A DNA stretch of 64,000 bases. Source: Candidatus Bathyarchaeota archaeon. Its GTDB lineage: Archaea > Thermoproteota > Bathyarchaeia > Bathyarchaeales > Bathycorpusculaceae. Shown in pieces: positions 5,626-32,226 of the stretch; position 1 is the first letter of the stretch, and the number at the start of each line of letters is the position of its first letter. Location: assembly GCA_963777155.1 (NCBI GenBank), contig CAVZPM010000002.1, positions 1 to 64,000 on the forward strand, given 5' to 3'. The notes below the pieces were generated by a model. It was not told the DNA's origin. It did not search any database and saw only the letters and a program-made list of their open reading frames with translations. A program made the position numbers and the translations under genes.

Positions 5626-5703
5626 TGGCGGGTCCGACGGGAATTGAACCCGCGACCCCCGGATTAAAAGTCCGGTGCTCTAGCCTGACTGAGCTACGGA
5701 CCC
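5626..5703 (-). tRNA. tRNA-Lys(UUU), no intron, encoded CCA
   Basis: Reverse complement GGGTCCGTAGCTCAGTCAGGCTAGAGCACCGGACTTTTAATCCGGGGGTCGCGGGTTCAATTCCCGTCGGACCCGCCA folds as a cloverleaf with anticodon TTT. Confidence 0.97.
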
Positions 5704-13463: not shown

Positions 13464-14468
13464 TTACTTGCCTGACAAGAATCAGAGTGTAGGGGTCATC
13501 GGCGACCTGCGGAAACTGTGTTTCTTTTCCTTTCTTTATTAGAACCCGTTCCTTGTTTTCTTTAAATTCACCTAGAAAGTAAGCAGATAAGCCATACTTG
13601 GCTAATGAGGCAGTGACTTTTTCTTGCGCTTTAGGAGAAACAGCCGCCAAAATCGTACCCGTCGAAGACATTGACAACATTTGCTCATCTGTGAGGTTAA
13701 AGTGTTGTTTTAGGGCATAGACTTCCTTTGGGAAACGAGATTTTTTCCCAATCAACCCTTAACCCAACTTTCGATGCCTCAGCCAATTCGTTGAGAGCTG
13801 CCACAAACCCGCCTTCAGTCGCATCATGCATTGCATGCACGTCTTCAATTTCCGCAAGCTGAAGAGCCTCTCTTACACAGCTTTGCATGTGAACCAGTTT
13901 GGCGAGTTTCTCTTGTGTGTTAACTCCGAAGAGTTCTTGCGCTTCTTCCTTGTGAGTGAGTGAAAAGTTGGTTATTGTTTCTAAACCCAAGCGGTTTTGT
14001 GCACAAAATCAAATCACCTGCCTTGGCGTTTCCCGGCGTAATCAATTTTCGTGGTTCTACAGTTCCGTAAACCGTGCAGACACCGAGCATATCTTTGAGG
14101 CTGTCGTACATTCCTGTGTGTCCACGAACAATTGCAACGCCTAATTCGTCGACAGCTTGGCATGTTTGCTTCATGATTTTCTGGAAAACTTCTGGTTTTG
14201 TCCCTTTTGGTCCAAGGAGGTTTATTGTGCAGAATTCTGGTTTAGCCCCAAACAGCGCTACATCCGAAGCTGCATAATGTAATCAGAAGCCATCCAAACC
14301 ACTCTTCAGGCACTCCCAGTGCATGGGTCCGTTGCAACCGCCACGTACTTGCCATGTAAAAGATGGACTCCTGCATCATACCCAATCATGGGCGGAACGA
14401 TTACTCGAAAATCCTTCTTTATACAACTAAGCAATTTTTGGAGATCTTCGATTCGAAAGTTTCCCCAT
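13432..14468 (-). CDS. AIR synthase-related (PurM/HypE/ThiL superfamily) protein, several frameshifts
   Basis: Fragments MGKL.., GYDAGV, ATDP, SDVA.FGAKP, RGHTG, GDLILCTK, HAMHDATEGG spread over several frames. Confidence 0.8.
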
Positions 14469-14482
14469 ATTTCTCATTCTCC

Positions 14483-15038
14483 TTAAATATAAATTTTTAG
14501 TACCTTGCTTTTCTGTAGTAGGCCTATTAATAGCACTTATTATCATGTTCGGGTACGAGGTAACTTCCGTTGTAGACTGCTGAGTAAAGCATGGGCTCAT
14601 ACCTTCAGGCGCATATGAGGCAAAGATAGACGACGCCTGAAACAAAATGCAGATGAAGCGTCCTGTAATTCCAACGACGACGCCAGCGACTGGCACTTTT
14701 TGGAAGAACCCTGCAAATCCAAGCACACCGAACGGCAGTGTATAATCCAGAGCACTGAGGTAGAAAATGGGTTTGACGACAAATGACTGCGAGCTGCAAC
14801 AAACCCGAATACAGCGCCTGCGAATATACCAATTTTGGCTCCCGTCTTAAAGCGCAAGCCAAATTATAGGTACCATCCAAGGTGTAATTGAGCCTCCTTC
14901 GTGGCTAAAAACGAGTGACTGACATAAGCTAAGGCCCTGCCAACGCCACAAATATTGTTATTTCTGCGAGGATTTTGTTGGATTGTATGTTGTCTTTAAA
15001 TATTTCTTAGGGTTAGGTTCAGTATTGGTTGTGTTCAA
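14483..15038 (-). CDS. thiT: ECF-type thiamine transporter S-component ThiT, heavily frameshifted
   Basis: Fragments KILAEITIFVALA, GGSI, MVPIIWLA, GAKIGIFAGAVFG, LDY.LPFG.LGFAGFF, RFI.HFVSGV, SYAPEGMSP, YSAVYNGSYLVP; TPP riboswitch directly upstream. Confidence 0.8.
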
Positions 15039-15042
15039 GTTT

Positions 15043-15140
15043 GTTTTTCCCTCCGCCAGTATTACCTGGTTCAGGTTCCTAAGGGTCGACAGCAAACAGC
15101 CGTCCTCTCAGCCAGGTCACTTTCCCAGCTCCCCAAGAAC
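15043..15140 (-). ncRNA. TPP (THI-box) riboswitch
   Basis: Reverse complement GGGGAGCTGGG...CCTGGCTGAGAGGACGGC...GCTGTCGACCCTTAGGAACCTGAACCAGGTAATACTGGCGGAGGGA has the UGAGA, ACCC, ACCUGA, UAAU loop and GCGnAGGGA hallmarks. Confidence 0.92.
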
Positions 15141-15205
15141 TAATGGGATAATGTTTTTAGGTGATATTTTAGTTTTCCTACCCAAACACTAACGAGTTGA
15201 TTAGC

Positions 15206-19636: not shown

Positions 19637-20733
19637 TACAGAATCGAGTGGTGATGCTGGCGGACTTTGACTATTTCTTTGCTCAATGCGAAGAACTCCG
19701 CAATCCATCAATCAAAGACAAACCTGTGGTTGTCGGTGTATACTCTGGGCGCACTGAGGAAAGCGGAGCCGTAAGCACCAGCAACTATGTTGCCCGCAAA
19801 TACGGCGTCAAATCAGGTATGCCTCTGTTCTTGGCAAAACGCAAACTAGAAGGTACCGACCCAGTTTTCTTCAAGGTGGACCACGAATATTATGACCAAA
19901 TAAGCGATCGCATCATGCAGATTTTCCGGGGCTACGCAACCAGTCTGGAGCAGGTCAGCGTGGATGAAGCTTACTTGGACGTAAGTGAACAGGTTGAAGG
20001 AAGCTTTGAGAAAGCCCAAGATTATGGCCAAAAAATTAAGGCAGATGTTAAAACCAAAGTAGGAATTTCCTTCTCCATCGGTGTTGGTGCCAACAAGCTG
20101 ATCGCAAAAATCGCTTGCGACAGCCAAAAACCCGACGGTTTAACAATCATTAAACCCGAGAAAGCTAAGGCTTTTCTTGCACCACTAGCAGTTGACCGCC
20201 TCTTGGGTGTAGGGAAAAAAACTACCATACACATGGAGCAAATGGGAATTAAAACAATCGGTGACTTAGCCAAATACGATTGTCAAAGACTCATCGAAGT
20301 CTTCGGCAAAGTCATGGGCATATACTTTCATAATGCAGCCAATGCGATAGACAATGAACCCATCGTGGAACAGGGCGAAGCTGAATCAATTAGCCGCATT
20401 GGAACCCTGAAGCAGGATACGAGGGATTTGGATTTTATTCTGCAGAAAACAGACGAACTAACAGAATACGTTTTCAAAGACCTAACAGAAAGGAACCTGA
20501 GTTTTAAGTCAGTCTCTATCTACGTTGTTTTAGTTGATTTAAGCAGTAAAAACCGTTCAGTTACTCTTGAGCAACCAGCCAAAGACAAGGAAACCATCAC
20601 AAAAAACGTCAAGACACTTTTTGAGAAGTTTCTGGGTGAATCAACACTTGAAATAAGAAGGGTCGGAGTAAAAGTTTCAGGGTTCCATAAAGAAGAACTA
20701 CATCAGAAACAGTTGACGTTATTTTTCCAATAA
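19636..20733 (+). CDS. dinB: DNA polymerase IV (Y family)
   Basis: D.DYFFAQ, SNYVARKYGVKSGMP, SVDEAYLD, KPDG, GVGKKT; start is either ATA 19636 or GTG 19648. Confidence 0.94.
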   Translation: MQNRVVMLADFDYFFAQCEELRNPSIKDKPVVVGVYSGRTEESGAVSTSNYVARKYGVKSGMPLFLAKRKLEGTDPVFFKVDHEYYDQISDRIMQIFRGYATSLEQVSVDEAYLDVSEQVEGSFEKAQDYGQKIKADVKTKVGISFSIGVGANKLIAKIACDSQKPDGLTIIKPEKAKAFLAPLAVDRLLGVGKKTTIHMEQMGIKTIGDLAKYDCQRLIEVFGKVMGIYFHNAANAIDNEPIVEQGEAESISRIGTLKQDTRDLDFILQKTDELTEYVFKDLTERNLSFKSVSIYVVLVDLSSKNRSVTLEQPAKDKETITKNVKTLFEKFLGESTLEIRRVGVKVSGFHKEELHQKQLTLFFQ

Positions 20734-30145: not shown

Positions 30146-30394
30146 GTGAATTTTTTGGCAGAACAAAAAAAGATAACACTCCAAGAGCTTCAACAGAATA
30201 ATGGTAAAAACGGTAAACCGGCTTACATCGCCTACCAAAATAAAGTCTATGATGTTTCAGAGAGCAGTTTTTGGATGGAAGGCGACCACATGGGCATGCA
30301 CGATGCTGGCAAAGACTTAACTGAGGAACTGGAGATGGCGCCACATAGAGACGAAACCATTAAACGAATAAAGTTCGTAGGCGATCTAGTCTAA
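30146..30394 (+). CDS. Cytochrome b5-like heme/steroid-binding protein
   Basis: NGKNGKPAYIAY..KVYDVS, H...H.AGKDLT...APH. Confidence 0.88.
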   Translation: MNFLAEQKKITLQELQQNNGKNGKPAYIAYQNKVYDVSESSFWMEGDHMGMHDAGKDLTEELEMAPHRDETIKRIKFVGDLV

Positions 30395-30400
30395 AGACCT

Positions 30401-31637
30401 TCAAAAGATGCATTGTAGTACGCTGTCAATTTTGTGTAGATCACTCAAAACATCTCTTATTTCTTTAACGCTCAATTTTTGTCTTACCTTATGAAGTTCA
30501 CTGATTGTCTGATTCAGATTATCAAAAGCGGACTTTACGTCTAAGTCTTCATTAAGACTATCTTCGAAGCCAGCCACAATTTTGCCTAGAACGGATTTTT
30601 TCCTCCGAAATGTGGCGCGAAGGTTTTGTCTTTTCTAAGTCTGCCACCATTTTTTTGAAAGCGTCCAGCCTCTGCGTAGTTTGAGCCAGCTTTTTCAATG
30701 TGAAATTCAGTTTCTTCCTATAAGGACCGTAAATAAGAAAGAACCTTAGCTGTTGGCTACTGAAACCTTTGGCTAATAAGTCGCTAAGGTAATAGACATT
30801 GCCTTTGCTCTTAGACATTTTTTTGCCGTCAACAAACAGGTGCCCACCATGTAACCAATACCTAGAGAACTGTTTGCCTGATACCGCTTCGGCAACCGCA
30901 AGCGTGTAGTCATGATGCCTCACCAAGTTATCACTTCCTCCGCAAGCAAAGTCGACACTGAAACCCAAGTGTTTGGTGACGATGGCTGCGTCCTGAATGT
31001 TCCATGCAGGTCTCCCGAAACCAATAGTTGTTTGATAACATTCATCGTCTTTTTTGCAGCCGTGCCAAAGAACAAAATCACCCCGATTCCAAGGGGTTCC
31101 TGGATAGGTATCTTTATGGAATCTACGTTTCTTTTTTGGCCATTTATTCATGTCTAAATGGGCAAGTTTGCCAAAACCCGCAAATTTTGATGGGTCAAAA
31201 TAGATGTTTTCCGAGCCTTTGTAAGCGTAATTGTATGCAATGCCTCTTTTGATTAGTTTAGAAATCAAGTCTGTTGTTTGGTCTATTGCTGTTGAAGCTT
31301 TAATTGGGTAGTCGGGCTTTTTGATTCTTAAGAGCTCAAAGTCCCTAAAGAATACTTTTTCGTTTCTTCGGGTTAACTCTTCTACAGTAAGGTTTTCTTT
31401 TTTTGCCTGAGCCAACGCTTTGTCTTCTACATCAGTTAACGTCATAAGCCGCCGAACATTGAACCCTAAATATTCGAGGTATCGCTGGAGTACGTCTTCG
31501 AAAAGGAAGGTACGGTAGTTTCCAATATGGGCGGGTTGATATGTCGATGGGCCACAGGTATACATTTTGACTTCTTTGCCTTCTTGGGGTTCAAAGGGCT
31601 CGATTTTTCTGGTTAACGAATTGTAGACGTTAATCAA
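30401..31637 (-). CDS. CysRS-like class I ligase (atypical paralogue), frameshift in the A-run near 30600
   Basis: YTCGP, HIGN, DFVLW, GRP.W, KMSKSKGN; removing one A restores a DALR-like C-terminus ending IDSVLQCIF*. Confidence 0.85.
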
Positions 31638-31651
31638 ATGATCTTCTCCGT

Positions 31652-32128
31652 TTAGGCAGTAACTTTTTCTTCCTTATCAATTTCTACGAGGGTTTTCTTC
31701 GCTTCCTCAACATGCCGCTGTGCTTGGGTTTGTGAAACAAAAACATGTCGAACTATGCCCTTCTTGTCAATAATGTAGGTGACTCGACCTGGAATAATGC
31801 CCATAGTTGAACGTACACCATACAAATCTCGGACTTTATTGTCTACATCGGCAAGAAGAATAAATGGTAATCCATAGTGCGTAGCGAAGGACTTGTGGGA
31901 TTCCACGCTTTGTCCGCTGACACCCAGCACTTCAGCCCCTAAATTGGCTAACTCTTCATAGTTGTCTCTAAAAGTGCAGGCTTCTTTTGTGCAACCTAGC
32001 GATTCATCCTTGGGGTAAAAATAGAGAACAACACTTTTTTTACCAAAATACTCTGAGAGAGTTACGTTGTCACCCATTTGAGAAGGAAGCGTGAAATCAG
32101 GCGCTTTATCACCGACTTTGACTGTCAA
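31652..32128 (-). CDS. bcp: Peroxiredoxin, BCP/PrxQ type
   Basis: VGDKAPDF, LYFYPKDESLGCTKEAC. Confidence 0.9.
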   Translation of the reverse strand: MTVKVGDKAPDFTLPSQMGDNVTLSEYFGKKSVVLYFYPKDESLGCTKEACTFRDNYEELANLGAEVLGVSGQSVESHKSFATHYGLPFILLADVDNKVRDLYGVRSTMGIIPGRVTYIIDKKGIVRHVFVSQTQAQRHVEEAKKTLVEIDKEEKVTA

Positions 32129-32226
32129 AAACTCCACCGCACAATAGTTGCTTTTAAGCTCTATATGGTTTTCGCACCAAATCAAACGATATAAGAGGCA
32201 GTGTATATAGCAACCGTGGCGATTGT

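Follow-up and report, generated by a model that had tools for sequence, protein, structure and literature searches.

The stretch of DNA analysed here, called the window below, comprises positions 1 to 64,000 of contig CAVZPM010000002.1 from the assembly GCA_963777155.1 of a Candidatus Bathyarchaeota archaeon, and the gene under study lies on its minus strand at 30401..31637. It encodes a paralogue derived from cysteinyl-tRNA synthetase (CysRS), here named PAR, of 411 aa once a single surplus base is discounted; as assembled, the gene consists of two open reading frames (ORFs) on the minus strand, 30558-31637 (359 aa) and 30401-30577 (58 aa). In Pfam searches the 359-aa ORF matches PF01406, the catalytic domain of CysRS, at 2e-75. 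Its immediate upstream neighbour, on the same strand, is the gene of a Bcp/PrxQ-type peroxiredoxin (bcp, 31652..32131), whose product matches PF00578 (AhpC-TSA) at 1.9e-39. The TAA stop of bcp and the TTG start of PAR are 14 nt apart, with a spacer acggagaagatcat (31638..31651) that contains GGAG; a reading of this DNA made earlier from the sequence alone had given the same distance, which the ORF coordinates (31637 vs 31652) bear out. On the other side, a cytochrome-b5-like gene recognised by profile search runs convergently on the plus strand (30146..30394), and its stop is 6 nt from that of PAR.

We mapped the residues of PAR by HMMER alignment to the E. coli CysRS 1li5. Both class-I signature motifs are present: MYTCGPSTYQPAHIGNYRT aligns to E. 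coli MYVCGITVYDLCHIGHGRT, with C28 kept (codon at 31554..31556, invariant in the family) and the HIGH-type motif reading HIGN (31518..31529), and the KMSKS loop (30807..30821) is intact. The canonical set of four zinc ligands, which we take to be C28, C209, H234 and E238 in E. coli numbering, is not complete. C28 and H234 are kept, C209 is an invariant Asp, and the E238 position varies among T, N, I and V across the family, with Thr in the window copy. Thus GRPAWNIQDAAI aligns to E. coli GRPGWHIECSAM with W205 kept and the changes H206N, E208Q and C209D (WNIQD, 30990..31004), and RHHDYT aligns to PHHENE with H234 and H235 kept, the changes E236D, N237Y and E238T, and an Arg for the preceding Pro (RHHDY, 30906..30920). 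The intact motifs and the C-to-D and E-to-T ligand changes are those that the sequence-only reading had reported, and its reservation that the substitutions could be read errors falls away, because WN[IV]QD and RHHDY, together with TCGPS, HIGN, a TDVEDK-type motif and KMSK[SR], are present in all of the 20 family sequences, which were taken from 9 genera. In an alignment of ten rows with identities as low as 41%, C28, G29, T68, W212, N213, Q215, D216, R240, H241, H242, D243 and Y244 (PAR numbering from W212 on) are invariant, the fixed changes round the site besides Asp216 being N213, Q215, R240, D243 and Y244.

A set of Cys, Asp and His makes a workable zinc site, and such sets bind zinc and thiolates. 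Since Cys28, the Asp at the C209 position and the His at the H234 position are all invariant, we infer that the metal site of PAR survives with a Cys/Asp/His ligand set. An Asp at the C209 position (WHIEDTAM/I) is also carried by two full-length CysRS-like proteins that have the C-terminal domain CysS_C, namely P0172, of 462 aa, and P0238, of 458 aa, so the Cys-to-Asp change arose more than once. The earlier proposal that PAR adenylates a different amino acid is therefore not carried by C209D, because the same Asp stands in these CysS_C-bearing proteins and Asp can hold zinc.

At its C-terminus PAR is shorter than E. coli CysRS. The intact homologue P0001 aligns over residues 1-406 to residues 1-390 of the 461 of the E. 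coli enzyme, and PAR ends with ...DSVLQCIF at the domain boundary, with no CysS_C after it. At E<=1 neither P0001 nor P0121 has a Pfam match to CysS_C (PF23493) or to DALR_2; the canonical CysRS of the same genome matches CysS_C at 1.2e-10 and DALR_2 at 1.8e-9. An AlphaFold2 model of PAR (pLDDT 92.3, pTM 0.92, from an alignment of 52 rows) has helices at residues 314-336, 350-361, 367-383 and 390-407, and by alignment, Pfam and the model the last helix of the stem-contact fold and the helical bundle, residues about 314-411, are encoded at 30404..30698. F357 and A370 of the bundle are kept, and are invariant in the canonical rows of the alignment too. The description of PAR as having no anticodon domain is thus right for the CysS_C reader, which is missing by Pfam, but not for the class-Ia helical bundle, which is complete in the model (helices 350-407); the stop directly after the DALR-like helices is seen in both the alignment and the model. 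In Foldseek searches the top matches are CysRS structures (8qhp with a TM of 0.88, the tRNA complex 1u0b with 0.86 and 1li5 with 0.85; query TM), and MshC structures come near behind (8hfn with 0.85, 3c8z with 0.84).

The genome has a second CysRS gene. A canonical cysS lies on contig C11, with GRPGWHIECSAM, PHHENE, KMSKS, DALR_2, CysS_C and all four ligands, and a profile search of the genome found no SepRS (best 26.6 bits vs a cut-off of 380.65). PAR is an accessory paralogue because the same genome has this canonical cysS, and the case in which it would be the sole Cys-charging enzyme, raised beforehand, does not apply. Its scores are below the cut-offs of both related models, with 298.3 bits (359-aa ORF) or 296.8 bits (genome scan) vs 340 for TIGR00435 cysS and 196.4 vs 485.1 bits for TIGR03447 MshC, while the canonical cysS reaches 350.5 bits on TIGR00435 from one piece alone; PAR and the canonical CysRS of the same genomes are 36-40% identical. 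Of 41 genomes, 40 have a canonical-type CysRS match (30-40% identity) and the remaining one is 56% complete, so PAR never substitutes for cysS. Compared with canonical CysRS (TIGR00435, PF01406; 8qhp, 1li5, 1u0b), which gives the best match of PAR (8qhp, 3.1e-64), PAR shares the HIGH-type motif, KMSKS, C28, W205, H234, CP1, the stem-contact fold and the helical bundle. It differs in the Asp at C209, the unconserved E238, the substitutions H206N, E208Q, E236D and N237Y, the fixed Pro-to-Arg change, a basic CP1 loop and the lack of CysS_C, and in being accessory instead of essential.

PAR carries the signature of a family, GRP[AS]WN[IV]QD plus RHHDY in proteins of about 400-425 aa that form one clade of the tree. 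RHHDY is found in 17 of the 150 best 50%-identity representatives (6 of the 17 being at least 400 aa long), and the best 120 of the clusters made at 90% identity share 73-99% identity with the query, most of them being 411 aa long. A pattern scan of 185,579 species genomes matched at least 599 stretches, of which at least 581 encode a relative. Among the 80 best matches listed, which are 58-79% identical, 77 bear a title of Bathyarchaeota, Bathyarchaeia or uncultured archaeon; the other three are labelled Acidoferrum, Sulfotelmatobacter and Methanocella and are probably mis-binned contigs. A metagenome scan with generic patterns gave the signature in 4 of 80 loci, 3 of which resemble the window's own genus by sequence, and one contig (L175) carries the signature among bacterial-looking genes. 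Look-alikes in the Atlas hint at an occurrence in bacteria as well. Full-text literature searches found no paper on the WN[IV]QD-RHHDY family. On the whole, it is very probable that PAR belongs to a conserved, undescribed offshoot of CysRS defined by these two motifs and, as part of the same statement, that it keeps the class-I catalytic core, CP1, the stem-contact fold and the helical bundle and ends where CysS_C would begin.

The distribution of the family is uneven. Samples spread evenly over the genus, the class Bathyarchaeia and the phylum have it in 27 of 40, 49 of 401 and 9 of 401 genomes, respectively, corresponding to 9 of 131 genera in the class and 3 of 161 in the phylum. Of the 41 relatives, 20 have a match at family level when the broken copies of G021 and G022 are counted; they are the window's own genome, 18 of 24 in the genus and 1 of 16 in other genera. 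We examined four genomes of the genus without PAR. G005 and G024 have neither bcp nor PAR, and the genes on either side are 215 and 158 nt apart, respectively; G017 has lost PAR and kept bcp; and G331 has a decayed remnant with stops and frameshifts (L173 6749-7462) at the syntenic spot after the cytochrome-b5-like gene. Between species PAR is 76-82% identical, compared with 85-87% for canonical CysRS and about 91% for MetRS. PAR is thus accessory, patchy and repeatedly lost, and it is under purifying selection where present.

The tree was built by a quick IQ-TREE search (LG+G4) with 75 rows, including 17 family, 13 short and 45 full-length sequences; for the full-length class 56 of 101 representatives were dropped, the first 12 in the list and 33 of the other 89, taken at random, being kept. 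It is unrooted, contains no MshC, and 14 of its rows have an odd composition. The family makes up one side of a branch with an SH-aLRT of 86, or 99 with the degenerate 430-aa P0183 included, and its stem has a length of 0.36. The closest rows outside the family are short forms of ~405-417 aa, including DPANN proteins with canonical ligands that are annotated as cysteine-tRNA ligase, and this is suggestive of an origin of the family from a short CysRS. One of the short forms, the Micrarchaeota protein P0150 (405 aa), has an intermediate pocket, AEPAWNVQCAAM (WNVQC) ... NHHENT. Within the family the tree conflicts with the taxonomy, an example being that genera g199 (family f6) and g36 (f15) fall together with a support of 97; this disagreement suggests that the family has spread horizontally.

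For the gene neighbourhood we analysed 85 loci, namely the 80 best species-genome matches, four others and the window, and 81 of them have an intact signature ORF. Among these 81, which are close kin so that the counts are not independent, bcp lies at -1 on the same strand in 66 and the cytochrome-b5-like gene at +1 in 60. The block of UDG, p99, p103, methyltransferase, hydrolase, bcp, PAR and cytochrome b5 is confined to family f1 (9 genera compared), and the bcp linkage is absent in f6, f7, f15, f17 and the bacterial-looking contig. Other lineages show other neighbours. A Y-family polymerase is directly downstream of PAR in g16 (6 loci: L040, L048, L049 and L167-L169) and g36 (L050), separated from it by about 10-20 nt or overlapping with it by 29 nt. 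The neighbour is Ftr in g199 and a nitroreductase in g200. In g230 (G482, L166 5804-8271) the end of PAR overlaps the start of carA by 4 nt and carB comes next, which looks like a PAR-carA-carB operon with carbamoyl-phosphate synthase in this lineage. On L175 a hibernation-factor/cold-shock protein and CorC precede PAR and a zinc alcohol dehydrogenase follows it. Across six contexts there is neither a universal nor a conserved biosynthetic partner; the recurring theme of the neighbours is stress (peroxide, DNA damage, nitro compounds, dormancy), in few independent cases. The window has a Y-family DNA polymerase gene of the DinB/Dpo4 type as well (19648..20733, plus strand), 10 kb from PAR. A dependency on DinB was considered and set aside, as DinB occurs in 58 of 61 genomes of the genus, the PAR-less ones included, and is adjacent in one PAR subclade, so that the linkage is weak. 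Among proteins of 721-2055 aa no fusion with the family signature was found; this search gave one canonical CysRS with a garbled tail and fusions of cysteine synthase with CysRS (34-39% identity). The latter (P0130, P0284-P0289 and P0291-P0293) join a PF00291 cysteine synthase to CysRS in 760-781 aa and come from DPANN archaea and Desulfotalea-type bacteria.

Our preferred interpretation, to which we give a probability of about 0.4, is that PAR carries out an anticodon-independent, RNA-directed aminoacyl transfer; with the case of a back-up CysRS counted in, RNA-directed transfer stands at 0.4-0.45 and is favoured over an MshC-like ligase. PAR would make an aminoacyl-adenylate from an alpha-amino acid, as expected from the invariance of HIGN, KMSKS, G29, T68 and W205, and its metal site would select cysteine or an analogue close to it that coordinates metal. 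Once activated, the residue would be passed to an RNA-type polyanionic acceptor recognised without anticodon reading, which might be tRNA-Cys, as a back-up under stress, or another RNA. PAR would in this way work like CysRS* and Glu-Q-RS, and not via a small neutral amine as MshC does. The evidence that points in this direction is the invariant pocket, the CysRS-like fold, the basic CP1 loop, the short DPANN kin annotated as CysRS, the precedent of truncated CysRS, the lack of a conserved biosynthetic partner and of fusions, and the stress-type neighbours in independent lineages.

On the acceptor side, a CP1 stretch of canonical CysRS reads the first acceptor base pair, according to a section of PMC5389517. 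By alignment the conserved basic loop WPKKKRRFHKDTYPG (31098..31142), which takes the place of E. coli QAGARV...KRNP, would stand at this base-pair-reading stretch. WPKKKRRFHKDTYPG and its near variants are the 12 commonest loop forms, with 53 sequences among the 81 family ORFs searched. The proteins themselves are basic, with a family median pI of 9.03 (77 sequences, 96% above 7.5), compared with a pI of 5.0-6.2 for 7 of 8 canonical representatives and 5.8 for the canonical piece of the same genome. As for the missing reader, the same section of PMC5389517 describes a natural CysRS* of Desulfobacterales in which the anticodon-binding domain is missing, as in PAR, and an engineered CysRS variant without the domain that charged tRNA; loss of the domain accordingly does not show tRNA independence. 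CysRS* is coupled to a selC* tRNA and selB* in that account, while PAR has no nearby or unusual tRNA. A second precedent is Glu-Q-RS (YadB), a truncated GluRS paralogue, which is also a class-I enzyme without an anticodon reader and acts on RNA: it glutamylates queuosine in tRNA-Asp, and the portion of PMC9437257 that deals with it gives no conserved operon partner. It differs from PAR in its parent synthetase, and for PAR no modified-base target is suggested.

Several observations weigh against this interpretation. MshC has the same domains and matches the PAR model almost as well (TM 0.84-0.85), and DALR_2 is not detected by Pfam in the PAR bundle. The canonical representative P0152 is basic too (pI 9.34), 23% of the crude ORFs of at least 200 aa in the genome exceed pI 9, and the DPANN-like relatives have a pI of about 10, so the charge may have been inherited; given this proteome background we downgraded the basic pI as a proof of RNA binding. 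ARAGORN, run with and without introns (37 and 45 tRNAs), gave no dedicated or unusual tRNA in the genome and no suppressor or UCA-anticodon tRNA; there is one tRNA-Cys(GCA), at C36:52200-52275, and U73 occurs only in tRNA-Cys and two detected tRNA-Thr. Just 4 unrelated tRNA genes lie in up to 94 PAR loci, and the Rfam matches in the window are a tRNA-Lys (5629-5703) and a TPP riboswitch only, with none near PAR, so that a dedicated tRNA partner finds no support in these scans. The phylogenetic argument is weakened by a tree that is unrooted, quickly searched and odd in letter make-up in 14 rows. Finally, six invariant second-shell changes and the long stem branch (0.36) point to a changed substrate and speak against a plain use of cysteine.

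The alternative that survives best, though we consider it somewhat unlikely, is a tRNA-independent ligase like MshC, which would adenylate Cys or another amino acid and join it to a small amine, giving a thiol or redox cofactor used with the peroxiredoxin. MshC (TIGR03447; 3c8z, 8hfm) is likewise derived from CysRS, with about 410 aa and no C-terminal anticodon reader, so that PAR has its length class and architecture (about 410 aa, no CysS_C), and the structures 8hfn and 3c8z match at 0.84-0.85. MshC keeps Cys/Cys/His zinc ligands, whereas PAR has an Asp. The CP1 loop, being rebuilt and basic, might accommodate a small acceptor that is anionic. The position of bcp, 14 nt upstream in the window and at -1 in 66 of 81 loci, fits such a pathway, as does the joint absence of bcp and PAR in G005 and G024, 2 of the 4 PAR-lacking relatives examined, and according to the review PMC7278568 the peroxiredoxin AhpE is reduced through mycothiol. 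Against this, the MshC model score is 196 bits vs a cut-off of 485, and the pathway genes are not in evidence: MshB has 0 matches and MshD a best of 30.4 vs 163.1 bits in a genome that is 90.6% complete, MshA not having been searched, and a search for a GlcN-thiol pathway gave one partial, sub-threshold PIG-L match (25.1 vs 28.2 bits). PAR is archaeal, unlike MshC, and by InterPro, as reported in PMC7278568, archaea have no homologues of mycothiol genes but for a single MshD match in uncultivated samples. In addition, the bcp linkage is confined to family f1, G017 keeps bcp without PAR, and neither a conserved neighbour of a sugar or amine pathway nor a fusion is found. The small-molecule or redox-cofactor role proposed at the outset has the bcp linkage as its one backing; that linkage is confined to one taxonomic family, neither MshB nor MshD was found, and no biosynthetic partner is conserved.

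A further reading, which we regard as unlikely, takes the family for a new aminoacyl-transfer activity beyond the standard set of synthetases: PAR would be a stress-linked enzyme that uses its Cys/Asp/His metal site to activate a non-standard metal-binding amino acid and attaches it to RNA or an anionic cofactor without anticodon reading. Candidate substrates within this claim would be homocysteine, cysteine as its persulfide or selenol, or an analogue of the hydroxy or acidic kind. If it were true, oxygen-avoiding archaea and bacteria would have a protective molecule or RNA mark that is so far unknown.

PAR could also be a plain back-up isozyme of CysRS that would still make Cys-tRNA-Cys. Its metal site, with an Asp in place of one Cys ligand, would better withstand oxidation or a lack of zinc, and under stress it would be expressed together with the peroxiredoxin. 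Such an isozyme falls under RNA-directed transfer as a special case, and taken by itself we find it rather improbable. In its favour, C28, H234, W205, G29 and T68 are all invariant, the full-length, CysS_C-bearing P0172 and P0238 have Asp at C209 as well, the DPANN short forms with canonical ligands are annotated CysRS, and PAR shares an operon with bcp. The rebuilt CP1 loop and the six further pocket or second-shell residues that are fixed differently, however, exceed what a ligand swap would need, the TIGR00435 score is under the cut-off, and PAR never replaces cysS (a canonical-type match being present in 40 of 41 genomes). A known likeness is with the Zur-regulated CysRS paralogues of proteobacteria, extra copies which a passage of PMC2770081 proposes to be alternative-metal isozymes using another metal or none. 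The likeness is by description only, and unlike these paralogues PAR has no zinc-uptake or COG0523 genes nearby.

Paralogues of aminoacyl-tRNA synthetases with side activities, such as LysU and CARS2, make one think of a function other than transfer (synthesis of an Ap4A-type alarmone, synthesis of cysteine persulfide, or a regulatory or sensor role), which the stress-type neighbours in several lineages would suit, but which is very improbable, since no specific signal for an alarmone, persulfide or sensor role is seen and the conserved amino-acid contacts and the acceptor loop favour transfer chemistry. The second lysine of a KIIK motif is tied to persulfide synthesis; it is Ala in P0001 (DKALA), and a persulfide synthase was rejected.

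CysRS paralogues with assigned functions are listed in Table 1 of PMC9437257 as MshC and CysRS*, and the PAR family would be a third branch beside these two. It is widespread: at least 581 stretches of species genomes encode it, its clusters at 90% identity run into the hundreds, and among the 150 best representatives at 50% identity it accounts for 17. Both the pocket (metal and amino acid) and the acceptor loop have been remodelled, and the new form is fixed. The substrate and acceptor of PAR would extend the list of activities on synthetase scaffolds. The outcome might be that anaerobes have a new stress metabolite or a new RNA modification, or that a variant of the zinc site can still select cysteine.

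It remains to consider the window copy itself, whose frame is split. The homologue P0001, 411 aa long and 99% identical, runs uninterrupted across the break (...EEKIRSSKIVAGFEDS...), and relative to this homologue a single G is in excess in the TCTAGGCAAAA of the window (coding strand; 30583..30587, minus strand). The repaired length of ~411 aa anticipated from the sequence is confirmed by P0001. Contigs assembled from two public runs, X1 and X4, of different years and about 98% identical, are each one letter short at 30585; they represent near relatives of the window strain and not its own reads. Contigs of a further run, X3, do not extend over 30585. The only canonical cysS of the assembly is split as well, by a 1-nt surplus at ATGGTTGGCACTAATC relative to two relatives in the genus, although it must work because the genome has no SepRS. 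Its surplus base sits in a GGCA context resembling that at window 30585 (C11:55717-57103; locus L001 1489-3040, minus strand), and the two cases suggest that single-base insertions are systematic in this assembly. Because relatives lack the base and the essential cysS has a similar one, the split of PAR is probably an assembly artefact.

That the frameshift is genuine and the window copy a recent pseudogene, whatever the family does, is improbable by comparison. The family is dispensable, as shown by the stop-bearing remnant in G331, the clean deletions in G005, G024 and G017, the broken copies in G021 and G022 and the lack of a match in 13 of the 40 sampled genomes of the genus. The copy nevertheless has a single defect, is otherwise 98-99% identical to the intact 411-aa homologue, and differs by its surplus base from P0001 and from the contigs of two runs; the cysS surplus in a similar context and the frequency of split genes in the assemblies of relatives speak for an artefact too. 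In the loci L026, L027, L028 and L031 of relatives, MetRS and other genes appear as two or three adjacent ORFs of the same family, which suggests that in related assemblies genes are often split by indels. The window itself also contains, at 15031-15145 on the minus strand, the TPP riboswitch mentioned above (60.8 bits vs a gathering score of 54.3 in Rfam), and the 1.27 kb downstream of it (13756-15030) has no ORF of at least 100 aa on the riboswitch strand; a thiamine gene there may also be broken by indels.

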